Made by a program: the position numbers and the translations under genes. A DNA stretch of 64,000 nucleotides from an uncultured Candidatus Bathyarchaeia archaeon (GTDB lineage Archaea; Thermoproteota; Bathyarchaeia; 40CM-2-53-6), in the NCBI GenBank assembly GCA_964598845.1, contig CAZRDM010000006.1:38049-102048 (forward strand), given 5' to 3'. The notes beneath the pieces were generated by a model that saw nothing but the letters and a program-made list of their open reading frames with translations, was not told the origin of the DNA and searched no databases. Every line of letters starts with the position of its first letter. Position 1 is the first letter of the stretch. Positions 22,539 through 48,342 of the stretch are shown here, one piece after another.

Positions 22539-23762
22539 CTAGCCTCTCTCCTGTCGCTTCGCGGCTTCGACAAGTGCTTTGATGGCGGGCAGTTCCTCTC
22601 CCGCAAGTAAGGAAAGCATTGCGCCTCCGGCAGTGCTCACGTGTGAGAATTTGTCTGCTATGCCCAAGATTCCAGCATAGCCAGCCAGATGGCCTCCACC
22701 TATTACGGTGAAGGCGCTGCTGATGGCCATCGCCTCAAGAATGGTCTTCGTTCCACTCTCGAATCCGTCCCGCTCGAAAACGCCCAAGGGTCCACTAGCC
22801 ACTACGGTTCTTGATTCGTTTATTATGGTGGCGAACCTTTCTGCGGTTTGAGCGCCAATGTCAAGTACCGTGCCTGCTCTCACTACCTTCTGGATTGATG
22901 TCTCAACTCGCTTCCCGCTGCTCAGGGTTCCGAAATCTGAAGGCATGAGAATGCGTTTTCGATGCTTTGCCAAGATCTGCTTGGCCTTCTTGACTTGGTC
23001 GCTAGCCTTGGCCAGTTCTCCTTCCTCAGACTTGTCGAATCTCTGCCCTTCGGCTTTGAGGAAGACTTTCGCAACATTGCCCCCCACAAGGACATGGTCA
23101 GCGCAACCAGTCGCCAGAATGTTTTCGATGACTGGCACCTTGTCCTCTATCTTTGCGCCTCCTAGGATGTATGTGCTTGGTCTTTCAGGATCTTTCAATA
23201 GACGCTTGAGGGTGCTCAGCTCCTTCTCCATGAGTCGCCCCGCTGCGGATGGAAGCACGTACGGAAATGCCACAAGGGAAGCCTGCGACCTATGAGCAGC
23301 CGCGAAGGCATCATTGACGTAGAGGTCGAAGAGCGCGGCTAATCTGGAAACCAGATTTGTTTTCGCGAGTTTCTCACCTGTGTCTTCCACGTTTTCTTCA
23401 GAGCAGAAACGAACGTTATCCAGAACGAGAACCTCCCCTTTCTGAACTTGCTTAATCGCCTCTCGCGCAGCCGGGCCCATGACATCGTCAATGAACCTGA
23501 CATTTTGTGAACAGTTCTTCTGGAGTAACTCTGCATGTTGCTTTAGTGAGGTGAAGTCGTCCTTCCCGGGGCGGCTTTGATGAGAAAGCACTGCCACTCT
23601 GGCTTCGGTCAGCGCATCCAAAGTGAACTTGGCCGCCACGATCCGGGTGTCATCGAGAATCTGGTTGGTGGTAGGATCCAACGGGGAGTTTATGTCGAGC
23701 CTAAGTAATACTCTCTTTTCCCGCAGGTCCAAGTCATCGAGCGTTAGGTAATCGAACTCCAT
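22539..23762 (-). CDS. pgk: phosphoglycerate kinase
   Basis: PGK family motifs (RVLLRLDINSPL; GGGHLAGYAGILG near the C-terminus). The ORF-track start at 23984 is an over-extension that runs across a tRNA gene. The start is set at the Met of MEFDYLTLDDL. Confidence 0.85.
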   Translation of the reverse strand: MEFDYLTLDDLDLREKRVLLRLDINSPLDPTTNQILDDTRIVAAKFTLDALTEARVAVLSHQSRPGKDDFTSLKQHAELLQKNCSQNVRFIDDVMGPAAREAIKQVQKGEVLVLDNVRFCSEENVEDTGEKLAKTNLVSRLAALFDLYVNDAFAAAHRSQASLVAFPYVLPSAAGRLMEKELSTLKRLLKDPERPSTYILGGAKIEDKVPVIENILATGCADHVLVGGNVAKVFLKAEGQRFDKSEEGELAKASDQVKKAKQILAKHRKRILMPSDFGTLSSGKRVETSIQKVVRAGTVLDIGAQTAERFATIINESRTVVASGPLGVFERDGFESGTKTILEAMAISSAFTVIGGGHLAGYAGILGIADKFSHVSTAGGAMLSLLAGEELPAIKALVEAAKRQERG

Positions 23763-23876
23763 GCCCGTCTGATCCAGCCTGCACTCTGAACATGCGACGT
23801 TTATCATTAAACAGTTTTGAGCCCGGTTCGGGTGGCAGAGAACATTATTACCTACAGACCCGGTTTTGTTCGTTGG

Positions 23877-23983
23877 GCCGGGGTGGCTCAGCTGGTAGAG
23901 CGCCAGCCAGGCTAAAGGGGCGAAACTCATAATCTGGAGAGCATTGGGCCCAGAAGCCGCGGGTTCGATCCCCGCCCCCGGCA
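23877..23983 (+). tRNA. intron-containing tRNA, probably elongator tRNA-Met (CAU) with two non-canonical introns
   Basis: acceptor GCCGGGG/CCCCGGC, D-arm GCUC-AGCUGGUA-GAGC, T-arm GCGGG-UUCGAUC-CCCGC, discriminator A. An anticodon-loop-like CUCAUAA is flanked by CCAG(A)/UCUGG only after excising about 17 nt from the anticodon stem and about 16 nt from the variable region. The 107 nt length means about 33 nt of intron. Confidence 0.55.
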
Positions 23984-24043
23984 CTAAAGAAGAACCGAGC
24001 CGACGAAGCTCTCCGACGTCAAATTAGTGTAAAGGCGACATGT

Positions 24044-31065: not shown

Positions 31066-34000
31066 TCACGCCAGAGCAATGGTTATGATGTGCAGTTCCA
31101 CGCCCTGGGATGTTTGGACTAAAGCGCCGACATAAACCATCCTTGTAGTTCCGGTGAAGACTGTCCACACGTTTACTGTTCTGGCGTTGTTCGAGATTAG
31201 TACATCCTGTACAAAATTGTGCAGAGTTGAGTTGACTGCGTCCCAGTCCTGCAGCCCCCTGAAGGTCAGGTTGGCGTAGAGGTATTCCACGTTGGCGCTA
31301 GGCTGACGGATTGGTGTGCGGACCTCAAGGCCCATTCTTGATAGCTCATCCTTGACCGCGTCTATGCGCTGCTGTTCGCCGGAGAGTGTCACGCCGCTTC
31401 CAAGCAGCGAATAGGCCCTGAACGGCGCGGCAGCGATTTCTCGAGGATCTTTGCTATCTTGGAGCAAGTATGGGGATCCGACTTTGCCTGTGACGCCATC
31501 GGCAGCGACGACCATTCCTACGTTTAGAACTGAGGGCGATGGCGCGTAGTACGGGAGGAGATACACAGGGCGATTCCCCACAACGTAGAGGAGGAGATTT
31601 CCTTCCTGCCATTCCTGACCCGCGAGCCTCCTAGTGGTAAGAATGTTCTGTACATCAGGCTGGCTTCTAATGGAATCTAGTATTATCTGGATAGGCAGCG
31701 CCTTTTCCAAGGGGATGAACAGCTCCTTTCCGTATCCGAAGAAAACAAACATTCCAGCGACGGCTCGCGGTGTCCACTGCTCGCTTCTTTGTTTGTAGAC
31801 TTCAACTATTCTAACTGCGGCGTACTGCAAGTGGCCATCGTAGAAGACCGGCACGTAGCGGATGTCGTCGATTCGAGTGTTGAAGTAGTCGTCCCTTCCT
31901 AGAGGAAAGTCAAACATGTTGAGCGTCTTGTACCAACTGCTCGCATCCGAACTTTCGATCCTATACGTATTGTACAGGTCGATAAGCCGATACATGAGGC
32001 TCTTCGGAAAACGTACTTGGCTTGCGAGCCAGTCTGGCATCTCCTTGTCCCATGCTCCGTAGAACGAACCGTAGAACTTGGTGATGTAATTCTCCTGCCA
32101 GTTTCCATATCTGTATCCGCTGATCTTGCCGTCATGGGTGTTCACGAGCATGACGGCGAAAGGACGTCTGAAATCGCCGCTTGTTTCAACGAACTGGCCC
32201 AATCTCTCGGTATCAGCATACGGCGTGTTCAATGCCCTCTCGATGTAGACAGAGAAGGCGTAGTAGATGTTCCCCTGCGGGTCTGTGACTAGATATGGAA
32301 TCGGTGTGTTCGCGACCGGCTCGTTCTCTACGACCAATCCCTTGATTAGAATGGCTGAGACTCGATCGATCACGTCCCTGTGCATCAGCACCGATATGTC
32401 TCGACCGAAACCTCCTGTTGCGAACTGTATATTGCCCTGCAGGAGGAGGAAAAACCAGAATCGCTCAGAGAATCCCAGAACTTTTTCATCTTCGCCGAAG
32501 ATGTAGTCTGGTTCTCCATCGTAGAAGGTCGAGTGCTTGTACCCAGGCATGTGAGTTTCAGTCCAATTGCCTATTCTCAGGAAGACCATTCCCTGCTCCT
32601 TGAACAGACCCCCGATCCCGTAGTACATTGAAATCCTAGTTGGATCTGCCTCAGGGAACACCCTGCTGATTGGCACCACTTCGCCTGTGGCTGCATCCAC
32701 CGCGAGAATAACCTCGCTGTGCGTATACTGGTAACGCGCACCAACCTCCTGACTGGATTGTTCCGGTAGCACGGGACTCGTAGGCAAGACCCAGTATTCC
32801 TTGTCGCCGCTCCAAACTATCATCGGCCCATAGGTGATCTGCCCGCTTGAATCCACATCGTATGCTAGCTTCATCCATGGCTGTCCTATGTCACGCCCGT
32901 AGGCGTACTGCATCTGACTTATCGCAGCTGTGAAGCTGACGACCCTTATTGAGCGAAGGATCTCCTCCTCTACAGGAGGAGGAACGGTGAGCATGCTAGC
33001 ATTGGCGACCTGAATTGTTCCGAGACTATCCGCCCACTTCACGTAGTCTATGTGAGGCCTAATTGTGTAGGGAAACTCGAAGATATTCCTGTTACCCTCA
33101 TAGTCCTGCAACCTGTGATATGCCAAGTCCGTCTGGAGACTTGGCGCGATGAGCAGCAGTCCTATCAGCATGATCACAAGTATCGATCTCATGATTGTCC
33201 GGCGCGTGCTTTGAGGTACAGTCCCCCGCCACAAACGGTCGGCAACGGTGAAGAAGAGCGTCACACCGACCAGTACGACTGCCGTCGCTATGCGCCACAT
33301 TGTGTGAATCGGAAGCGAGATGTCGGCCAGGATCATGGGTGACTCGGCTATCATGATGTAGATGTACCATATGGTTGCAATGAGCATGATGTTTCGCAGC
33401 GATTTAACCCAGTTGTGGTGCACGGGAATTGAGAACAGCGCAGTCATGGAGACAAGGACAAGCAGTGGGATGACATACGCCCGCATTAGCCTGATGAAGT
33501 CGAATACGACCGTGTTCGCTATTAGAAAAGCGCCGTCCGGATAGTGCCCGCTCATTATGTAGGTCACTGCCCGTAAGTAACCCTCACTCAGAAACTGTGG
33601 CCAACTTATCCCCGCGTCTTGAATGTACCCGTTCACCAAGAGAAATTGCGCCGCAACCGTATGGGCGAGACTTGAACCCACTACCGCACCTATGAAGGCG
33701 AAGAACAACGGTACTGCTGGCAGCCATTTCCTAACGTCCATGTGCGGCCTCCTTGGTATCCACCCAAAATCATCTTGCGGTCGCCTGCTCTCCCTGTCTA
33801 CTCCCTTGAGTCTTGTTCCCCACCAAGCCGCGAAAACCACACCAATGAATGCGAAGGTTACCACGTAGGCCAGCAATGCGTACCAGTAGACACCCTTCTC
33901 GAACCAGAGAGCCCAGACATCCAGACCGCCCTTTCGCGATATCCAGACCCCTTCGATCTTAATACTGAAGAGCCAATTAGCTACCAGGACGACTACAATT

Positions 34001-34074
34001 AGAGCCACTATTCCAAGAAGTAGGGCCCGACTTATCCAACTTGTCATGTAACTCCGAGACAAACTCCGCTGCAC
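31066..34074 (-). CDS. UPF0182-like large membrane protein (about 7 N-terminal TM helices plus about 700 aa extracytoplasmic domain)
   Basis: 1002 aa; the architecture and size are characteristic of the UPF0182 family. Assigned by overall pattern only. Confidence 0.6.
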   Translation of the reverse strand: MQRSLSRSYMTSWISRALLLGIVALIVVVLVANWLFSIKIEGVWISRKGGLDVWALWFEKGVYWYALLAYVVTFAFIGVVFAAWWGTRLKGVDRESRRPQDDFGWIPRRPHMDVRKWLPAVPLFFAFIGAVVGSSLAHTVAAQFLLVNGYIQDAGISWPQFLSEGYLRAVTYIMSGHYPDGAFLIANTVVFDFIRLMRAYVIPLLVLVSMTALFSIPVHHNWVKSLRNIMLIATIWYIYIMIAESPMILADISLPIHTMWRIATAVVLVGVTLFFTVADRLWRGTVPQSTRRTIMRSILVIMLIGLLLIAPSLQTDLAYHRLQDYEGNRNIFEFPYTIRPHIDYVKWADSLGTIQVANASMLTVPPPVEEEILRSIRVVSFTAAISQMQYAYGRDIGQPWMKLAYDVDSSGQITYGPMIVWSGDKEYWVLPTSPVLPEQSSQEVGARYQYTHSEVILAVDAATGEVVPISRVFPEADPTRISMYYGIGGLFKEQGMVFLRIGNWTETHMPGYKHSTFYDGEPDYIFGEDEKVLGFSERFWFFLLLQGNIQFATGGFGRDISVLMHRDVIDRVSAILIKGLVVENEPVANTPIPYLVTDPQGNIYYAFSVYIERALNTPYADTERLGQFVETSGDFRRPFAVMLVNTHDGKISGYRYGNWQENYITKFYGSFYGAWDKEMPDWLASQVRFPKSLMYRLIDLYNTYRIESSDASSWYKTLNMFDFPLGRDDYFNTRIDDIRYVPVFYDGHLQYAAVRIVEVYKQRSEQWTPRAVAGMFVFFGYGKELFIPLEKALPIQIILDSIRSQPDVQNILTTRRLAGQEWQEGNLLLYVVGNRPVYLLPYYAPSPSVLNVGMVVAADGVTGKVGSPYLLQDSKDPREIAAAPFRAYSLLGSGVTLSGEQQRIDAVKDELSRMGLEVRTPIRQPSANVEYLYANLTFRGLQDWDAVNSTLHNFVQDVLISNNARTVNVWTVFTGTTRMVYVGALVQTSQGVELHIITIALA

Positions 34075-40218: not shown

Positions 40219-40986
40219 ATGGTCAAGAGATGCCCATCATGCGGCTACAATAACCGCGACGATGCAGCATTCTGTTCAAGTTGCGGCGCCTCACTTGTAG
40301 GCGCAGTGCCCCCCACACTGAAGCCAGTCCCATCAGTTCGAGTTGTGACGCCAGTTGCACCAGGCGGACCGATTAGGGTTCCACCACCGGGACAGTGCTT
40401 CTATCACCCGAACTTGCCGGCGGTCTATGTCTGCAACCGCTGTGGAAGAGCGATCTGCCGAGACGATTCGAAGGCATACATGGACTTGGTCCTCTGTCCT
40501 CAGTGTTATGCTGGTGTAGTGCCTGTGGTTGCCCCACCAGTACAAGTTCCGGCACCAGCATATGCCCCACCGCCAATGCCAGCCGCACCGGCACCAGCAA
40601 TCATGGCCCCGTATCCACCGCCTTTTGTTGCACCAGCAGCCCCAAGAGCCCTCTGGGGATTCATACTCTCAATGATAGCTGGAATCCTCGTGATCCTTAA
40701 CGCTGCTGCATTGCTCTCGAGCCCATTCTACACCTTGTGGTCAGGTGTATTCTTCTGGTTACCAGTCATCGATCCTTCACCAACTCACGGCCTAGTCTTC
40801 GCTATCGGTGCAATAATCGGACTCATCCTAGTAATCGGGTCGATACTCATGTTACTTGGATACGGTACTATTGGAAGCATAGTCGTCTTCCCGCTGGCGG
40901 TTCTGAGTCTGATTATTGGCGGAGGTTTTGTGGCCGGCTTCGTTCTCGGCGTGTTGGGCGGAATTCTCGGCATGCTGGGAAGGTAA
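40219..40986 (+). CDS. membrane-anchored zinc-ribbon + B-box/RING-like zinc-finger protein (candidate small E3-like factor)
   Basis: N-terminal zinc ribbon CPSCGY-x10-CSSCG; second module C-x2-H-x8-C-x2-C-x4-C-x12-C-x2-C (CFYHP..CNRCGRAIC..CPQC); a Pro/Ala-rich linker, then 3-4 TM helices. Confidence 0.6.
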   Translation: MVKRCPSCGYNNRDDAAFCSSCGASLVGAVPPTLKPVPSVRVVTPVAPGGPIRVPPPGQCFYHPNLPAVYVCNRCGRAICRDDSKAYMDLVLCPQCYAGVVPVVAPPVQVPAPAYAPPPMPAAPAPAIMAPYPPPFVAPAAPRALWGFILSMIAGILVILNAAALLSSPFYTLWSGVFFWLPVIDPSPTHGLVFAIGAIIGLILVIGSILMLLGYGTIGSIVVFPLAVLSLIIGGGFVAGFVLGVLGGILGMLGR

Positions 40987-41030
40987 CGCGCTCAACAAGG
41001 TCCCCGATTTTTTATTTTCCTTCGATTTTG

Positions 41031-42578
41031 GTGTGGCCTGTGTCCTATGTTAGCATCTGGAAGCCTGTCAACGACCGTATTGTTCAGGCTTCACGTGAAA
41101 CCGGAAATGAGATCATAGGACTGCTCCTCGGCAAACTCGAAGATGATACGATAATCATCGAAGACTCGATTACGGGCGATTACTTCGCGGAAGAGCATCG
41201 AGTGACTCTGCCTGCAGCAACACTCGCAAAGATTGCAGACGGCATAGTCACTGGGCGAATCAAAGGCAACATTGTGGGCTGGTATCACTCACACACTAAA
41301 GACGGACTCTTCTTCTCGGAGACCGACATTCAAACCCAGAAGCAACTGCAACAGTTTTCGTCCCTCGTCACCGGAATGGTTGTGGACGCCAACACGGGAG
41401 AGGTCGGATACTACAGAATCGACCCGCAGACTGCCAATTCCATCCGTTTATCCGATGATAGGGTTCGGATCTACAAGGAGGCGAGTGAGGCGATTCCTTC
41501 AAGAGTGATAGCGAGAACCCGGGTTCGTCCCACTCCAACCATTGAAATTCGCGAGCACGCGACCCAGCGGGGAACTCCGACTCGGAAAGTGGTTATCGGA
41601 ACGGTCTTGATAACACTCGCAGCGTCCGCAATACTTCTCGGCGCGTTGTTCCTCAGGGGCCCTACAGAGGCAGAGAAACTAAACGTAATCCTTGCGCCTG
41701 TCTCAAGCGCCACGGTTGGAACGCCCATTGAGATCAAAGCCAATGTTACGGGTCAGGTTCGCAATGTAACCCTAGTCTACGCTACTTCGGGTGCTTCATT
41801 CAAATCGATGGACATCAGTCCGCGCTTACCCGGCGAGTATGCCTACGTAATATCGGGCCAAGAAGTTACAGGGAACATCGCCTACTACATCAAAGCAATC
41901 GACACTTCTGGCAACGTGGTTCGTACGGATCTGATGCACATTCCAGTTTCAGACTACCTGATCGTCGCGAGGACGGCGGAACTGACAGTTTACAGGAACC
42001 GATCTGCCACAGCCCACCTCGCCTTGCTCCCAATAAACGGTTTCAGCCAATCAGTGACTCTAAGCGCGTCAGCACCCCAAGGACTCACTTTGACGTTTAC
42101 TCCGAACCCAGTCCTCGGCGGAACGCTAGAGCTCACGATGAATGCTGTAGCCAGCGACGACATGCCGAATGGCACCTTCCCTCTTTCCATAACTGCCACC
42201 TACTCTCCCCCCGAGGCTCCGCGGGTAACCCGTCAAACAACAATCGCCATCACAATAGCAGACTTCGATCTGCAGGCTTCTCCGACCTCAAAACAAGTCT
42301 CAAGGGGAACCACATCCGTCGCCTACACCTTGACCCTAACAATACAACAAGGCTTCGTAGATCCCATTACGGTCACCGTTTCGGGAATCCCACCCGGCGC
42401 AAGATATCAGTTGACAACCACAAGTACGACGATGTTGGCTAGCGGCGCAGGCTCAAGGACGATAATGCTCCAAATCACGTTAACCCCAAGCGTCAAGCTC
42501 GGAAACTATACTTTATCCATAAGTGCAACAGGTGGAACCATCGTCCATACTGAAACTGTGGAACTCATAGTAAGATAG
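41031..42578 (+). CDS. JAMM/MPN+ (Rpn11/Mov34-type) metalloprotease fused to a TM helix and a long extracytoplasmic beta-rich (Ig-like repeat) domain
   Basis: JAMM motif E..GLLLG ... GWYHSHTKDGLFFSETD (ExnHxHx7Sx2D). The start is placed at the GTG/TTG at 41028-41031 because the 5' part of ORF 40737-42578 overlaps the upstream gene. A TM segment lies near residue 290 and is followed by about 300 aa of Thr/Ser-rich beta repeats. Confidence 0.8.
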   Translation: MWPVSYVSIWKPVNDRIVQASRETGNEIIGLLLGKLEDDTIIIEDSITGDYFAEEHRVTLPAATLAKIADGIVTGRIKGNIVGWYHSHTKDGLFFSETDIQTQKQLQQFSSLVTGMVVDANTGEVGYYRIDPQTANSIRLSDDRVRIYKEASEAIPSRVIARTRVRPTPTIEIREHATQRGTPTRKVVIGTVLITLAASAILLGALFLRGPTEAEKLNVILAPVSSATVGTPIEIKANVTGQVRNVTLVYATSGASFKSMDISPRLPGEYAYVISGQEVTGNIAYYIKAIDTSGNVVRTDLMHIPVSDYLIVARTAELTVYRNRSATAHLALLPINGFSQSVTLSASAPQGLTLTFTPNPVLGGTLELTMNAVASDDMPNGTFPLSITATYSPPEAPRVTRQTTIAITIADFDLQASPTSKQVSRGTTSVAYTLTLTIQQGFVDPITVTVSGIPPGARYQLTTTSTTMLASGAGSRTIMLQITLTPSVKLGNYTLSISATGGTIVHTETVELIVR

Positions 42579-42616
42579 TTTAAGCTCGACCGTGGAAATG
42601 CCAAATTAGCATGAGC

Positions 42617-42624
42617 GGAGGTGA
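42617..42624 (+). promoter_or_regulatory. Shine-Dalgarno GGAGGTGA 10 nt upstream of the ATG at 42635
   Basis: seen directly; it supports the internal ATG as the true start of the ubiquitin-like gene. Confidence 0.5.
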
Positions 42625-42634
42625 AACACCCCAA

Positions 42635-42877
42635 ATGAAACTCTTCGTGCAGGCGCCGATCGGTCCTCAGACGGGTCTAGCGGAAATAGATGTGATTCCC
42701 GATCACACTGTCGCTGAGATTAAGCAGCAGGTCTGCCAATCCTTCGGCGTCGATCCTACAACTGTTGCGCTCATGTACGGAGGCGCAATACTCGACGAGA
42801 ACACGACAGTCTCAAGGCTTGGTATACCTGAAAACGCTCAACTCGCCCTCATGCCATACACCATCATTGGCGGATAA
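42635..42877 (+). CDS. ubiquitin-like beta-grasp protein with C-terminal Gly-Gly
   Basis: the 80 aa MKLFVQ...LALMPYTIIGG* shows the Ub pattern (MQIFVK / hydrophobic core / C-terminal GG immediately before the stop). Confidence 0.8.
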   Translation: MKLFVQAPIGPQTGLAEIDVIPDHTVAEIKQQVCQSFGVDPTTVALMYGGAILDENTTVSRLGIPENAQLALMPYTIIGG

Positions 42878-42889
42878 GGCTGGTCGAAA

Positions 42890-43474
42890 ATGGACATTTC
42901 ATTGCTCTACAAGGAGAAGAATCTGCTCAACCATCAGTTCCCCACAGTAACCTCGCTGAACGACCCTCCAACGCAATTCGAAGGCCTCATACGCTGCGAG
43001 AAGGGAGAGGTCAAGAAACTCGCAGAGAAGGGAATCTGGCCATTCACCGAGTACGCCAACTGGAACCGCTTCCGACTCGAACTCTCCCCTGAATATCCCC
43101 TGAAACCACCGATAGCAACATGGCTCAGCAACATCTCACACCCCAATATCGTCCCGAACATAGCGAATGCAGTATGTGTTTCCATATTGGGCGAGAAATG
43201 GGATCCTAGGCTGAAGCTGATCTCCGTAGTCAACGCATTTCATTACCTCCTGACCGATCCCAATCCTCAGAACGTCTTCGACCACCCCCGCTCCCTTAAG
43301 GCAGCCAACGTCTGCCGATCCTACGGATTCCCGAAGATGACAAAGAATCAGCAGACAATGAGGGACCCAGACGACATAGTCCGATTCAACATTGTGCCAG
43401 TGCCTAGATTGACATCCCTCCCGTCCGCACCCGGGGACATAGTAAGGTTTTCGATTCCTGGGAGAGAACGCTGA
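42890..43474 (+). CDS. UBC-fold E2-like ubiquitin-conjugating enzyme
   Basis: HPN motif and catalytic Cys region HPNIVPNIANAVCVSILGEKWDP, followed by LTDPNPQNVFDHP (UBC helix-3 PNP motif). Confidence 0.75.
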   Translation: MDISLLYKEKNLLNHQFPTVTSLNDPPTQFEGLIRCEKGEVKKLAEKGIWPFTEYANWNRFRLELSPEYPLKPPIATWLSNISHPNIVPNIANAVCVSILGEKWDPRLKLISVVNAFHYLLTDPNPQNVFDHPRSLKAANVCRSYGFPKMTKNQQTMRDPDDIVRFNIVPVPRLTSLPSAPGDIVRFSIPGRER

Positions 43475-43482
43475 GCGTCGTT

Positions 43483-44733
43483 TTGATGCGCGTGAGAGCC
43501 TCTCTCCCCTCCTACAAGGAAATCGAGGTGGAGCTGAACTCAGGAAAGACCGTGGGAGAACTCAAACAGCTCCTATGCTCGAGACTGGGAATAGAACCTG
43601 AACTCACGAAACTCTTGCTTCACAATGAAGCACTCTCTGAAAAGTCACGCATATCGAAGCTCAAAGAAATCGACACCCCACTGGTCATAGACTACCTTTG
43701 GGCCCGCCATCTAATTCTCTGGGGACCTGAAGGTCAAAGAAGAATTCGGTCATCGTCGGTCCTGATCGCCGGCGCAGGCGCCATCGGTAACGAAGTTGCG
43801 AAGAACCTCGCGATGCTGGGTGTTGGCAGGCTATTTATCGTTGACCGCGACAGAGTTGAAATGTCCAATGTCAGTCGGATGATATTCTTCGAACCGAACG
43901 ATTTGGGTATGAACAAGGCAGAAGTGCTAGCCAAGAACATTCACAGGAAGTTTCGTTTCGTCGAGACGATGGCCTTCAGAGGCGAATTGGAAAATCTCCC
44001 CCACAAGTTCTATTTGGATTCCGATGTCCTAATCTGCGGACTTGACAATGTAGCCTCAAGGATTTTTCTCACACAACTCTGCCGGAAGTATGACATCCCG
44101 ATGGTGGACGGAGGAATAACTGGACTCAACGCGAGAGTCCACATCTTCATCCCTCCCGACGACGCCTGCCCCATCTGCATCTTTCCACAGAGTCAATATT
44201 CGCAGATAATCGGCTTGCGCAATCCCTGTGACGCACCCGTGGAGCAAGAAGCCGTCCCGTCCTTCGCAACCTCAATATCACTGGTTTCCTCAATCCTGTC
44301 ACAGGAAGCCATCAAACTCATCTTGGGCCTGAAGGAGCAGCGGCGACGCGCAAGATGGCCCGAGAATGTTGGCCAGCCGTTAAAATCTGTTCTCTTCATC
44401 GATCTCAAGAACAACCGATACTCTCCAATGGACCTGAAGCGAAACGAGAGATGCCTCGTATGCGGAAGACAAGGGACCGCTAGGGAACTTGTGCCACGCC
44501 TCGAGCTACCGATCAAGAACGTCCGTGACTCAAGGAGAGATGTGGAGAAAGTGATTCGAATTGCCGTTAATGCAGAAAACAGAAGCCTCACAGTCTTCTC
44601 CGAAACATCTCGCGGGACCAGAAGACTAGACCTGTCCCGTCTCATGGAGAGTCTTGAAAGAGGCGATTACCTAAGAATCCTAGCTGAGGACAAGAATGGA
44701 GAACTACATGAATCAATAGTCAAACTGACGTAG
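43483..44733 (+). CDS. E1-like ThiF/MoeB/UBA-family activating enzyme with N-terminal ubiquitin-like domain and CxxC zinc motifs
   Basis: Rossmann VLIAGAGAIGNEVAKNL, DRDRVEMSNVSRM (E1 D-x-D-x-V-E-x-SN-x-R), CPICIF / CLVCG zinc pairs. The first about 75 aa have a beta-grasp-like pattern. Confidence 0.8.
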   Translation: MMRVRASLPSYKEIEVELNSGKTVGELKQLLCSRLGIEPELTKLLLHNEALSEKSRISKLKEIDTPLVIDYLWARHLILWGPEGQRRIRSSSVLIAGAGAIGNEVAKNLAMLGVGRLFIVDRDRVEMSNVSRMIFFEPNDLGMNKAEVLAKNIHRKFRFVETMAFRGELENLPHKFYLDSDVLICGLDNVASRIFLTQLCRKYDIPMVDGGITGLNARVHIFIPPDDACPICIFPQSQYSQIIGLRNPCDAPVEQEAVPSFATSISLVSSILSQEAIKLILGLKEQRRRARWPENVGQPLKSVLFIDLKNNRYSPMDLKRNERCLVCGRQGTARELVPRLELPIKNVRDSRRDVEKVIRIAVNAENRSLTVFSETSRGTRRLDLSRLMESLERGDYLRILAEDKNGELHESIVKLT

Positions 44734-44784
44734 CAATCGTTTGCACCCAATTGCCGCTCGCGAGGAAGCAATGATTCAGTGAAG

Positions 44785-44940
44785 ATGCTCGGGGACTCGA
44801 AGCTTACGCGGAAGTTTCAGGTGGCGATCCCGAAATCTGTGAGAGAGATTTTGAAGTTGCACACTGGCGACCTTCTGGTCTTCGTGAAGAACCACGATGA
44901 AATCGTGGCGAAGAGAGGTCGGGTTGAGATTGAGCCATGA
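44785..44940 (+). CDS. AbrB/SpoVT-type swapped-hairpin DNA-binding protein (51 aa)
   Basis: KFQVAIPKSVREILKLHTGDLLVF matches the AbrB/MazE fold consensus; below the ORF-track cutoff. Confidence 0.5.
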   Translation: MLGDSKLTRKFQVAIPKSVREILKLHTGDLLVFVKNHDEIVAKRGRVEIEP

Positions 44941-45557
44941 GTCTACCCGATCACGCGCCTATGAGACTGGCGCCATGCGTCTAAGGTTCGCGGTCGCTTT
45001 CGCTGTGATGGCTGGGCTTGTGGGCTTCTATGGCTTCGCCCAGGAATAGGGCGATCTTCTTGTCTTATCGACCGATGTGATCTTCGTTATCGTTTCAGGC
45101 GTCTCCGCTCTTTTTGCGGGACTTGTACTTCGCAGGTGGGGGCTTGATCGGTGCGGGTTCGAGTTGGATCTTTATTGGGGTGGTACTCGTAACATTGGGC
45201 AACATCACCTTCTCTCTGGGGACGCTCGAAGAATGGTACTATTCAGGCCATCCCTCGTAACTGCTCTATCTGGCTGGATACATCAGCCTGGCTCTAGGTT
45301 TTCTCGCTCAAAGATCAGTATTTGACCTTCTTGAGCCGGGAACGCGGAGAGGTTGAGTTGGGTTGAGTTCCTCTAAGGGCAGATTGGTTCATGGAACAGC
45401 CAACACCGAGGATCCCGAGGAGGCGCCATACCATCTAACATGTCAACAATAGGGCTCTAGACAATTCCATTCAGATGCCCAGAACAAACCAAAGCTTCAA
45501 AGAAAGAGCGGGAATAGTTAAAAAATCCATCATACCAAAGAAAGCCCGGGTTCCATT

Positions 45558-45950
45558 ATGGCCGTATGCCACGTATGCGGTAAGTCGAATGCTGACGATG
45601 CTAGGTTCTGCTTCAGTTGCGGCACACAACTCTCTCAAACCCCGCCTGTAAAAGTGGAGGTGAAATCGCCACTGGCCGGTGTTCCCCCTGCGCCTGCAGT
45701 CCCCCCCATGTATACTCCCAGGGCATTGCCCAGACCGGGAATGTGTTACTACCATCCCGATCTGCCGTCTTCCTTCGTGTGTTCGAGGTGCGGCCGATCC
45801 ATTTGCGCAGGATGCTACAAGCCCTACGGCGTACTCAGTTTCTGTCCAGAATGTTTCTGGGGATTAGCCCCCAAGCTTGGTTACCAAGCGGCGCAGTATC
45901 TACAGTACGCAATGGGGCAGCAGCAGGAACAGCCTCGATCCTTATTCTAA
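45558..45950 (+). CDS. soluble zinc-ribbon + B-box/RING-like zinc-finger protein, paralogue of the 40219 gene
   Basis: CHVCG-x10-CFSCG, then CYYHP..CSRCGRSIC..CPEC with the same spacing as in 40219-40986; a Pro-rich linker and no TM domain. Confidence 0.55.
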   Translation: MAVCHVCGKSNADDARFCFSCGTQLSQTPPVKVEVKSPLAGVPPAPAVPPMYTPRALPRPGMCYYHPDLPSSFVCSRCGRSICAGCYKPYGVLSFCPECFWGLAPKLGYQAAQYLQYAMGQQQEQPRSLF

Positions 45951-45954
45951 TCGG

Positions 45955-47625
45955 TTAGGCCAAGCGCCCCTCTTTCTTCAATTTCTCCGCTACTTCTTTG
46001 AGTTCATCCACTGAGATTCGGAGATCCTTCGCTGCTCTACTTAGAGATATTACTCCTTCGTGTTTGACGATGTAATCGTAGACCTTATCCTCTAACGAGA
46101 TTGGCGGCGTCGGCCCGCCCAGAGGTGCTCCGCATTTTTGACAAAAAGTGGCACCCTGCGGCATGCGACTCCTGCAACTGCTGCACACCAAGGTTACTCG
46201 CGCAGGTGCTGGAATAGGACGAGGCATTGGTGTCCTTGGCCCAATCATCCCGCGCCTGTAGGCTATTCCAATGCCAATAGCAAGTGCAGCGATAGCAACG
46301 GCGCTACCTCCAAAAAGGCTGATCAGGGGGAGATAATCAATAGTCCACACAGCCTCAACAACATACGGTCCGTCCACAATCAGTGTCCAAGAATCATCAG
46401 TCTGGGTTAGGCTTCCTCTCTCAGGATCGAGATGCCAGCCTGTGAGTGTGTAGGAGATCGGCCACGTTCCGGCGGTAGTTGATGACGCTATCTTGGCGAC
46501 GGAACCTTTATCGTACCATCCGGAACCTGAAACTGAACCATAGGAAGAACGAACCTCGACGTAGTATTGAGTCTCGTACGAAAGTATGACCTTGCGCGCT
46601 TTGTCCATGAAGACAGTGACAGAGACATCTGAGGATGAAGAACCATCATCGATCCAGGCGACAAGACTCAGTCGCTCAACGGTGCTTAGATTGATGATGA
46701 TCGGGGCAGGTCCAAGTTGCACATTCTGGTTCGCGTCATACCAGCCCGTATGCGTTTCATTGAAGGATGTTGATATGCTCACTGGCTCGTATTGAACTGT
46801 GAGCAAGTACTGAGCGATATAATGGGCTACGATCACATTCGGACGATCCATTAACACGTTTCCGGTTGAGGATTGCCCTGAGTATGCACCGCTCCAGTGG
46901 CTGAATCTAAGACGCGTGTCTCCGGTTGTGGGCACAATTGCAGCTGCGGCGAAATCTGCTTGACTATTGGCATCGTACCACCCATCGCCCCTCAGACCGC
47001 TGACGTTGGGTGGATCCGATTCGATGGTAAGAGAGTACTGTGTCTTCCATATCGCTATCGCCTTCTTTGGACTGTTCATCAGAATGCCGTCCGATGTCAA
47101 CCCCCCGCCAGAGATGTCTCCAGCCCAGCCTGTGAAGACATGCCGAATTCCAACACTCTCGCTGATCTCTCCTTCCCTGAGGCTTGCATGGACTATTGTC
47201 CCATCATCGTACCAGCCCTCACCTTCCGCAGAGCTGTAGCTAGTCTCTATGGTGAGGTAGTACTGGGCGGTGTATGTGAATGTGTGATTGCCCGCTCCAC
47301 TGAATAACCATGACGTATCCTTCTCATAGTACCTGGCTCCGTCAAGCCCCACACTGTTCGGAACGTAATAGTCTACAGTAATTATGTGGGCGTTGGGCGA
47401 CGTCATGAATGTGAACGAACGCGTCTGTCCACCGCTCAAGGTGCTGTTCGGGGCGCCGTCAATGTAGATATCCGTGCTTATGGTCGATGGAAGACCTTGA
47501 ATCGTAATCGTCACTGTGTACGTCGTTTGTCCATTCACGCCCGATGTCAACGAGACGACCAGACTCAGGCATAGCACGGATAATGCTAGAATCCCTGTTC
47601 TCAATTGCAACTCCGGCCGTCTCAT
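45955..47625 (-). CDS. bitopic membrane protein: signal peptide + large beta-rich ectodomain + TM + cytoplasmic zinc ribbon + winged helix
   Basis: 556 aa; the N-terminal signal peptide and Thr/Ser/Gly-rich ectodomain are followed by a TM helix (AVAIAALAIGIGIAY), then CSSCRS..CQKCG and a C-terminal wHTH-like domain YDYIVKHEGVISLSRAAKDLRISVDELKEV. Confidence 0.55.
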   Translation of the reverse strand: MRRPELQLRTGILALSVLCLSLVVSLTSGVNGQTTYTVTITIQGLPSTISTDIYIDGAPNSTLSGGQTRSFTFMTSPNAHIITVDYYVPNSVGLDGARYYEKDTSWLFSGAGNHTFTYTAQYYLTIETSYSSAEGEGWYDDGTIVHASLREGEISESVGIRHVFTGWAGDISGGGLTSDGILMNSPKKAIAIWKTQYSLTIESDPPNVSGLRGDGWYDANSQADFAAAAIVPTTGDTRLRFSHWSGAYSGQSSTGNVLMDRPNVIVAHYIAQYLLTVQYEPVSISTSFNETHTGWYDANQNVQLGPAPIIINLSTVERLSLVAWIDDGSSSSDVSVTVFMDKARKVILSYETQYYVEVRSSYGSVSGSGWYDKGSVAKIASSTTAGTWPISYTLTGWHLDPERGSLTQTDDSWTLIVDGPYVVEAVWTIDYLPLISLFGGSAVAIAALAIGIGIAYRRGMIGPRTPMPRPIPAPARVTLVCSSCRSRMPQGATFCQKCGAPLGGPTPPISLEDKVYDYIVKHEGVISLSRAAKDLRISVDELKEVAEKLKKEGRLA

Positions 47626-48060: not shown

Positions 48061-48342
48061 TTAGCTTTTGGTTCTCACCTGACCGTTCTTGGCGTGCTGG
48101 GTAGCCTCCTCTACATCTTGAGCTGAAAGACCTCGGCCTAGAATACCATCCTTTCTGAATGCGGCGTTCCCATCCCTGAACACTATAATCGTGGGAACAA
48201 CTTGGATATCGAATGTATCCCATAGCGGGTTCATTAGGTCGCTGACATCAACGTAGGCCCATGGAATTTCCTTCTCTTTGACAGCCGATTCGAAAACCGG
48301 TGTGAATCGTCTACAGAATGGACACCACTCTGCTGTGAACAA
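48061..48342 (-). CDS. thioredoxin
   Basis: WCPFC active site, 93 aa. Confidence 0.8.
   Translation of the reverse strand: MFTAEWCPFCRRFTPVFESAVKEKEIPWAYVDVSDLMNPLWDTFDIQVVPTIIVFRDGNAAFRKDGILGRGLSAQDVEEATQHAKNGQVRTKS

Follow-up and report, generated by a model that had tools for sequence, protein, structure and literature searches.

A conserved seven-gene ubiquitin-type module with predicted membrane-anchored components in Bathyarchaeia

The DNA analysed here, hereafter the window, is a stretch of 64,000 nucleotides from an uncultured Candidatus Bathyarchaeia archaeon (assembly GCA_964598845.1, contig CAZRDM010000006.1, positions 38,049 to 102,048), and it carries a compact group of genes for a ubiquitin-type protein modification system. 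The core of this group consists of five co-directional, closely packed open reading frames (ORFs) on the + strand, all of them present as the initial annotation of the window had described, which encode a zinc-finger protein (ZnF1), a JAMM metalloprotease, a ubiquitin-like modifier (Ubl), an E2 and an E1 (Table 1). In Pfam searches of these translations, the matches to ubiquitin, UQ_con, ThiF and JAB all lie above the gathering thresholds (GA) of the families. However, the end of the module had been placed too early, at 44733, because the conserved module reaches 47625 and includes a second zinc-finger protein (ZnF2) and a convergent gene for a membrane protein, which we call the partner.

The extent of the module was defined by synteny, matching the stop-to-stop ORFs of 46 loci against the proteins of the window, and the conserved order obtained is ZnF1(+), JAMM(+), Ubl(+), E2(+), E1(+), ZnF2(+), partner(-). 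A scan with one genome per species found the cluster in at least 42 Bathyarchaeia species (42 loci), with identities across loci of 75-98% for the Ubl and 57-85% for the E2, so that the description of such archaeal systems as rare does not apply within Bathyarchaeia. ZnF1 is found in nearly all the loci for which the upstream flank is covered. Also, all but three of the 42 scanned loci belong to sequences titled Bathyarchaeia, Bathyarchaeota or unclassified 'archaeon'. The three with bacterial labels (L008, L014 and L020, corresponding to DATIYC010000027, DATKOK010000014 and DASQZS010000030) come from metagenome-assembled genomes (MAGs) labelled Acidiferrales, Methylomirabilota and Acidoferrum, and these labels are probably binning errors.

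Table 1. Genes of the ubiquitin-type module and adjoining features, in window coordinates.
Feature	Position	Strand	Basis
ZnF1, 255 aa, zinc ribbon, B-box-like finger and transmembrane region	40219-40986	+	Pfam, ortholog alignment, hydropathy
JAMM protein, Rpn11/CSN5-type	41031-42578	+	Pfam JAB, 45 bits (GA 22.5)
Ubl, 80 aa, ubiquitin-family modifier	42635-42877	+	Pfam ubiquitin, 42.3 bits (GA 25.4)
E2, 194 aa, UBC core	42890-43474	+	Pfam UQ_con, 53.6 bits (GA 27)
E1, 415-416 aa, ThiF-type	43483-44733 (start 43483 or 43486)	+	Pfam ThiF, 167.4 bits
MazE/AbrB-type ORF, 53 aa	44779-44940	+	PF04014, 27.3 bits
ZnF2, 130 aa, soluble ZnF1 paralogue	45558-45950	+	41-45% identity to ZnF1
Partner, 556 aa, convergent	45955-47625	-	Pfam, synteny in nearly all loci, architecture across clades
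Hjc-like PD-(D/E)XK protein, 100 aa	47752-48054	+	PF01870, 28.3 bits
Thioredoxin	48061-48342	-	Adjoins the ubiquitin module in most related loci

The E2 falls inside the UBC fold, as its UQ_con score and its alignments to the eukaryotic enzymes UBE2E1, UBC12 and Rad6 in the PDB show, and its closest solved relatives are eukaryotic E2s. The HPN/Cys and PNP motifs that had been recognized in it correspond to H84-P85-N86-x9-C96 and D123-P-N-P126, respectively, the HPN and C96 being invariant in 26 sequences and aligning to eukaryotic E2s, and DPNP being likewise invariant among orthologs. Further motifs are YPLKPP in loop 4 and W104-x-P106 in loop 7. Two other peculiarities of the protein are an insert of some 14 residues and a C-terminal tail in which two repeats, DxVRFNIVPxP and GDIxRFxIPGR (window 43370-43465), are conserved.

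The modifier gene starts at 42635, with the Shine-Dalgarno-like sequence GGAGGTGA directly upstream, and its product is, as previously noted, an 80-residue protein that ends in IIGG right before the stop codon. The Gly-Gly pair is invariant in all the orthologs except one (L046), whose ORF ends differently. The related proposal that no processing is needed holds for most species, where the stop follows the Gly-Gly directly, but not for some clades that carry one to three residues past it (GG-NGR, GG-T and GG-CF); processing is therefore implied in these clades, and the JAMM enzyme would presumably perform it. Against solved structures, the Ubl scores about 29 bits with four chains named 'Ubiquitin-like protein' (6fj7, 2mqj, 5zew and 6fnn), of which 2mqj is confirmed as the Ubl of Candidatus Caldiarchaeum subterraneum, and about 20 bits with mono-ubiquitin. 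Since BLASTP gave no alignment between the Ubl and human ubiquitin, the relationship between both proteins rests on profile methods.

The E1 shows the motifs attributed to it, that is, G97xGxxG102, D121xDxxExSNxxR132 and the zinc pairs C229xxC232 and C324xxC327, together with the N-terminal Ubl domain (residues ~1-65) that had also been proposed, which reaches 26.8 bits on the ubiquitin family within the full protein and 31.5 bits when scanned alone. This domain is found in 20 of 20 E1 orthologs, and in the window it is 29% identical to the free Ubl. The best PDB matches of the E1 are eukaryotic Uba1 enzymes (E 6e-29), followed by ThiF and MoeB (1e-17 to 1e-12). In the ortholog alignment, C249 in the motif LRNPC is invariant, as are GxGxxG, DxDxxExSNxxR and both zinc pairs, and this residue, in a short crossover loop about 17 residues after C232 and about 10 residues before a conserved PSxxTS helix, would be the candidate catalytic Cys of the enzyme. 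The canonical catalytic-Cys domain or insertion of Uba1/UBA3 is not present in the adenylation domain, and the C-terminal 82 residues give no Pfam match. Considering the N-terminal Ubl, the absence of a Cys insertion and a C-terminus without an assigned family, this E1 resembles a compact MoeB/Uba5-style enzyme with a crossover-loop Cys, and it probably acts as a homodimer.

The coding sequence of the JAMM protein begins near 41028-41040 and not at 40737, where the mechanical ORF begins. A TATA-like, AT-rich element, TTTTTTATTTT, is found 17-27 nt ahead of the corrected start. The metalloprotease signature reported before is present as HSHx7SxxD, and the best PDB match of the protein is the Rpn11-like enzyme of C. 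subterraneum (6fjv, E 5.7e-14), followed by CSN5 and Rpn11. The protease domain occupies residues 1 to ~150 and is followed by a basic linker, a single transmembrane (TM) segment at 187-208, directly after a K/R-rich stretch, and an Ig-like ectodomain of about 305 residues. According to hydropathy, on which the membrane segments of this section are based, two components of the original five-gene set are membrane-anchored, as had been suggested, with one TM segment in the JAMM protein and about four in ZnF1. In the loci L002-L034 and L047, the HxHx7SxxD motif is conserved, and every JAMM ORF that is not cut by a contig end or a frameshift keeps the TM segment, the C-terminal part being either the ectodomain or a DUF998 domain with 6-7 TM segments. 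The JAMM protein would act as a deubiquitylase and as a processing enzyme for pro-Ubl, with a predicted tether at the cytoplasmic face of the membrane.

Both zinc-finger proteins combine an N-terminal zinc ribbon with a B-box-like finger. In ZnF1, the ribbon ligands C5, C8, C19 and C22 are followed by the invariant linker KPVPSVRVVTPV (window 40315-40350), then by a finger with the pattern C60-x2-H63-x8-C72-x2-C75-x4-C80-x-D82/D83 ... C93-x2-C96, whose ligands are invariant in the ortholog alignment, the sixth ligand being D82/D83 and the last pair CxxC instead of H…H. A Pro-rich spacer then leads to the conserved TM segments, within residues 146-255. In ZnF2, the ribbon is followed by the invariant sequence PPVKVEVKSP (window 45642-45671) and by a finger of the form C63-x2-H66-x8-C75-x2-C78-x4-C83-x2-C86-x9-C96-x2-C99, with its eight ligands invariant or nearly so. 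The consensus of B-box1-like fingers is C-x2-[CH]-x7-12-C-x2-C-x4-C-x2-[CH], and both ZnF1 and ZnF2 fit the eight-ligand spacing of this type. Moreover, zf-B_box matches 41 of 43 members of the ZnF1/ZnF2 family at E<=0.1 (best 8.9e-6), and Prok-RING_1 matches 14 of the 43, the score for ZnF1 itself being 17.6 bits, below GA. A loose strand-like motif, V-[KR]-[VF]-x-[VI], is common to the linkers of the zinc-finger proteins and the tail of the E2. The recurring motifs (the linker of ZnF1, PPVKVEVKSP of ZnF2 and the E2 tail) might serve as docking sites for a Ubl domain, for example the N-terminal one of the E1.

When a profile of the finger was searched against 1.84 billion representative sequences, only 409 proteins were recovered at E<=1e-3. 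The distant matches include prokaryotic proteins that score 35-53 bits on zf-B_box, above the Pfam threshold, and they pair the finger with TM regions or with DUF4097, DnaJ, kinase or Flg_new_2 domains. Among PDB sequences, a profile built from the finger proteins matched the ribbon alone (ArnA, E 6e-6), and the B-box of TRIM28 appeared at E 1-2. As relayed in PMC4506424, Burroughs, Iyer and Aravind (2011) proposed that prokaryotic B-boxes take part in the stability and proteolysis of membrane proteins. In the literature searched, which did not extend to that 2011 article, no report was found of B-box-like proteins beside a complete set of Ubl, E1, E2 and JAMM genes. On account of position and co-conservation, ZnF1 would be a membrane-anchored E3 candidate and ZnF2 a second one.

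The seventh gene encodes a single-pass surface protein with a signal or anchor sequence at residues 6-32, an ectodomain with an InlB B-repeat (Flg_new_2, 24.5 bits), a TM segment at 431-456 that is conserved across clades and a cytoplasmic tail formed by a zinc ribbon (29.3 bits) and a winged-helix-like C-terminal end. The last ~45 residues (window 45958-46104, - strand) are the best conserved part of the partner in all clades (loci L002-L046), with the consensus LDExVYxYIVKHxGVISLSKASxDLGIxVxxLKxxTERLKKxGRL. Pfam gives for this segment generic winged helix-turn-helix families alone, below threshold, and its best natural PDB match, over the full length and not significant (E 0.11), is 2xvc, a winged helix from Sulfolobus ESCRT-III/CdvB that binds CdvA. 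The winged-helix segment of the partner sits in a soluble zinc-finger protein in L041 and L042. Also, in some other proteins (e.g. P0367) the finger is joined to a TM region and to an ectodomain of the Flg_new_2 type, which is the kind of domain that the partner carries. This "Rosetta stone" hint supports the partner as the best candidate for a substrate, adaptor or sensor of the system.

The family membership and catalytic motifs of the Ubl, E2, E1 and JAMM proteins, the membrane segments and the conservation of the seven-gene module are directly supported by these data. It is likely, on this basis, that Bathyarchaeia carry a functional eukaryote-like system for ubiquitin-type conjugation and deconjugation that would act at the cytoplasmic face of the membrane. 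Nonetheless, several observations weigh against this interpretation, some of them concerning the zinc-finger proteins. ZnF1 had been described as a zinc-ribbon plus B-box-like protein, and the ribbon stands (Zn_Ribbon_1, 35.5 bits, above GA), but the zf-B_box match remains below threshold (18.1 bits, and 19.0 for ZnF2; GA 24.1), and no RING-H2 or C3HC4 Pfam match is obtained for the fingers of the window. The finger also occurs in many proteins without a ubiquitin context and, for this reason, need not be an E3. AlphaFold2 models of both proteins are unreliable: residues 1-102 of ZnF1, modelled with an alignment of 18 sequences, reach a mean predicted local distance difference test (pLDDT) of 58.7, with 72-78 in the finger, and ZnF2, with 43 sequences, reaches a mean of 56, its ribbon alone being confident and its finger below 50. 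A Foldseek search of the ZnF1 model against the PDB found nothing at E<0.1, the matches being LIM halves, the ArnA ribbon and NZF. With both models unreliable and no significant Foldseek match, a cross-brace fold and an E3 function of the fingers are inferences, and the models do not discriminate between RING and B-box. To our knowledge, B-boxes are not established as E3 ligases even in eukaryotes.

To the same side belong three features of the other components. The Ubl contains just two lysines, and chain building may therefore be limited. The E1 is without the insertion of about 70 residues that follows the catalytic Cys in the C. subterraneum E1 and in UBA3. Finally, the loci L036-L046, which form the deepest clade, have at the position between ZnF1 and the Ubl a gene (e.g. 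L036:6409-7704) for a protein that keeps the TM segment and the Ig-like ectodomain and has no JAMM domain. Pro and Tyr abound in its short cytoplasmic N-terminus (YYPPPRPRP…YYPRP), and no JAMM gene was found in the flanks of these loci, covering up to 8 kb per side and less at contig ends. The constant element in this clade is the membrane protein and not the protease.

Among the other explanations, the one that survives best accepts the cascade as real and takes the zinc-finger proteins as Ubl receptors or adaptors (with an NZF-like ribbon), substrates or scaffolds instead of ligases, the E2 modifying its targets directly as the Ubc9 of SUMO can do. The spacing of the N-terminal ribbon, C-x2-C-x3-N-x6-C-x2-C, is that of the RanBP2/NZF finger; weak Zn_ribbon_RanBP matches are seen in 29 of the 43 family members (best E 0.002) and zf_UBZ matches in four, and the NZF1 of TRABID is among the non-significant Foldseek matches, although all the NZF and UBZ signals lie below threshold. 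The closest solved ribbon, that of Sulfolobus ArnA, is a protein-protein interaction module. Moreover, the last finger Cys is followed by Tyr or Phe and not by a linchpin Arg, and the wide distribution of the B-box-like finger outside ubiquitin contexts agrees with a role of this kind. On the other hand, an eight-ligand binuclear finger stands exactly at the position of the validated RING E3 in the Caldiarchaeum operon, and two finger paralogues are retained in nearly every species. We consider an adaptor or scaffold role somewhat unlikely in comparison with a ligase role.

That the cluster is an anti-virus defence module, like the bacterial ISG15-like (Bil) operons or those of the cyclic-oligonucleotide-based antiphage signaling system (CBASS) with Cap2/Cap3, or like 6A-MBL, is highly improbable. 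Bil and type II CBASS Cap2/Cap3 operons (PMC10557695) likewise combine a Ubl or target, an E1, an E2 and a JAB protease, and the E1 of the window gives matches to the E1-E2 and BilD models of PADLOC. Nevertheless, these matches reflect generic E1 similarity alone, the E2, JAMM, Ubl and finger proteins have no PADLOC match, and no relatives of the E2 were found in phage, plasmid or IMG/VR collections. Unlike the defence operons, the Bathyarchaeia E2 is of the eukaryotic UQ_con type, and the context is chromosomal, syntenic, vertically inherited and made of housekeeping genes, with high sequence conservation across the 42 species.

A sulfur-carrier function of the Ubl-E1 pair (SAMP/Urm1/MoaD/ThiS type), with the remaining genes as bystanders, is practically untenable. 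The E1 does share compactness and a short crossover loop with MoeB/ThiF, and it scores well on the NCBIfam ThiF and MoeB models, yet it stays below their cutoffs, none of the 20 E1 orthologs has a rhodanese domain, the Ubl is a member of the ubiquitin family itself and not of ThiS/MoaD, the pair is conserved together with a bona fide E2, active site included, and with a JAMM of the Rpn11 type, and the neighbours are unrelated housekeeping genes, with no molybdopterin (MoaE), thiamine (ThiG) or tRNA-thiolation genes near the cluster. The distinction from E1-only sulfur-carrier systems that had been drawn for this locus is thus upheld. In short, both the defence and the sulfur-carrier explanations are rejected because of the housekeeping context, the missing rhodanese, the generic nature of the PADLOC matches and the absence of E2 relatives in mobile elements.

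The ubiquitin-type system favoured here is not without precedent in archaea, and the kinship to the Caldiarchaeum and Asgard systems that the initial annotation had suggested is sustained by the JAMM protein, whose best relative is the C. subterraneum Rpn11, by the Ubl, for which the C. subterraneum Ubl is among the closest, and by the shared core order. A eukaryote-type cluster of ubiquitin, E1, E2, RING and Rpn11 genes was discovered in C. subterraneum (Nunoura 2011, PMC3082918), and the system was reconstituted in vitro with the heterologous Rad50 of Sulfolobus as a test substrate (PMC5654768, PMC6043591). Similar clusters were reported in Asgard archaea (Hatano et al. 2022, PMC9192718), and a "ubiquitin protein modifier system" was stated for single-cell genomes of the Miscellaneous Crenarchaeotal Group (MCG)/Bathyarchaeota (Saw et al. 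2015, PMC4571567). The phylum-level host of the MCG genomes is the same (MCG = Bathyarchaeota), and both reports list presence alone. Also, the E2 is already annotated by name at NCBI in MAGs of Bathyarchaeia. For Bathyarchaeota, a ubiquitin system as such is therefore not new, as it was stated in 2015.

A comparison with C. subterraneum, whose sequences were derived by optical character recognition (OCR) from the supplement of PMC5654768, reveals the same set of components. The order there is rpn11l(-) | ubl-e2l-e1l-srfp, which the Ubl-E2-E1-ZnF2 core of the window matches, with ZnF2 at the position of srfp; thus, the gene order, which had been regarded as distinctive, is that of the C. subterraneum operon. 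With the OCR-derived E2, the E2 of the window has 28% identity over 122 residues and the unusual HPN-x9-C spacing in common. Identity to the OCR-derived E1 amounts to 33% over the 160 residues that end at the first CxxC, both E1s having a ThiF core with CxxC zinc pairs. The Ubl of the window, for its part, scores about equally against the Caldiarchaeum Ubl and eukaryotic ubiquitin.

Both systems differ, however, in several features. The JAMM gene of Bathyarchaeia is co-directional and fused to a TM segment and an ectodomain, whereas rpn11l of C. subterraneum is divergent and encodes a soluble protein. The Caldiarchaeum Ubl has an extension of nine residues, and the Bathyarchaeia Ubl mostly needs no processing. 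Unlike the C. subterraneum E1, that of Bathyarchaeia has an N-terminal Ubl and no insertion after the Cys. In this respect, a C-terminal ubiquitin-like (UFD) domain is typical of the E1s of clusters I and II (PMC5654768); the E1 of the window has 82 residues without a Pfam match at this end, and its N-terminal Ubl either replaces such a domain or adds to it. The product of srfp belongs to the RING-H2 type (99.8% in Phyre to RNF38 and praja-1), while the Bathyarchaeia fingers are of the ribbon plus B-box-like type; a homology between ZnF2 and srfp based on similar ligand spacing was considered and rejected, since the models of srfp are RING-H2 and the fingers of the window match the B-box. Moreover, Bathyarchaeia have two finger proteins, one of them in the membrane, and the repeat tail of the E2 and the additional conserved membrane partner also set this module apart.

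With the SAMP/UbaA/HvJAMM1 system of Haloferax, the module shares a β-grasp modifier ending in Gly-Gly, a compact MoeB-like E1 and a JAMM isopeptidase, and NCBIfam gives weak matches to the SAMP-activating E1 and the desampylase of the Haloferax type. In contrast to that system, Bathyarchaeia have an E2 and zinc-finger E3 candidates, their Ubl is a true member of the ubiquitin family, and nothing connects the module with sulfur transfer. A binuclear eight-ligand finger at a cytoplasmic end is a further likeness, shared with prokaryotic membrane B-box proteins, eukaryotic membrane RING E3s and TRIM B-boxes; the resemblance to membrane E3s of the endoplasmic-reticulum-associated degradation (ERAD) and MARCH types would be one of analogy only. 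None of the papers found describes an anchoring of components in the membrane, fingers of the B-box type, this architecture of the E1 or the partner gene. The system is of a known kind, with a known core order, in a distinct, lineage-wide version, and its apparently undescribed features would be the B-box-type fingers instead of RING-H2, the three membrane proteins, the tethered Rpn11-like protease, the E1 with an N-terminal Ubl and without a Cys-domain insertion and the E2 with a repeat tail.

As to the surroundings of the module, the neighbouring genes encode TFS, a peroxiredoxin, TrmO, the Hjc-like nuclease, the thioredoxin, an ArsR-type regulator, prephenate dehydratase, DHDPS and DinB. 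Part of this housekeeping neighbourhood is syntenic in other species, and the Hjc-like and thioredoxin genes usually come after the partner gene across loci. The spacer between the E1 and ZnF2 measures 824 nt in the window (44734-45557) and about 110-145 nt in other Bathyarchaeia species, where the MazE/AbrB-type ORF of 53 residues is missing; no toxin partner for this ORF was recognised, and the enlarged spacer looks like a lineage-specific insertion.

Elsewhere in the window, a tRNA gene of 107 nt (23877-23983, +) was found by Rfam (47.3 bits) and missed by ARAGORN, and on account of its length it probably contains an intron, a trait that points to an archaeal host. A mechanical ORF of 481 residues (22539-23984, -) overlaps this gene and is probably not a gene itself. 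An ORF of 1002 residues (31066-34074, -), hydrophobic at its N-terminus and unmatched in Pfam at E<=0.001, probably encodes a large surface or membrane protein.

We infer a thioester cascade in which the fingers act as E3s, together with its membrane topology and its targets, and these elements would be connected as follows. The 80-residue Ubl, already ending in Gly-Gly, would be adenylated by the compact ThiF-type E1 and then transferred to its Cys249 in the short crossover loop, from where it would be handed by transthiolation to Cys96 of the E2. The E2, aided by the membrane protein ZnF1 and the soluble ZnF2, would discharge the Ubl onto lysines of its targets. The membrane-tethered Rpn11-like JAMM protein would undo this modification and, where the Ubl has 1-3 residues after the Gly-Gly, it would also mature the precursor. 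Likely targets or partners would be membrane proteins, in the first place the neighbour with the zinc ribbon and the winged helix. A stronger form of this proposal, in which the module constitutes a membrane-embedded ubiquitylation machine with a polytopic B-box E3, a deubiquitylase of the Rpn11 type fused to a surface-exposed Ig-like ectodomain and a single-pass surface protein, with its cytoplasmic zinc ribbon and winged helix, as substrate, adaptor or sensor, is speculative and rather unlikely. If it were true, however, the module would represent a prokaryotic forerunner, outside Asgard archaea, of ubiquitin-dependent quality control or sorting of membrane proteins (ERAD, MARCH/ESCRT-like), as well as the first natural setting with a B-box as a ligase module.

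We know of no natural substrate or cellular role established for the eukaryote-like ubiquitin systems of archaea. In this respect, the module offers a variant that is fixed across dozens of species, abundant in soil and sediment, and that has clues to its location and partners built in, as three conserved membrane proteins are encoded in the operon, one bearing the deubiquitylase and another the candidate ligase finger. It raises the hypotheses that membrane proteins may be ubiquitylated in these archaea, that the B-box may be an ancestral E3 module and that a compact E1 may make use of its N-terminal Ubl. Finally, it widens the view of the ubiquitin features that were present in archaea of the TACK superphylum, which includes Bathyarchaeota, before eukaryotes.

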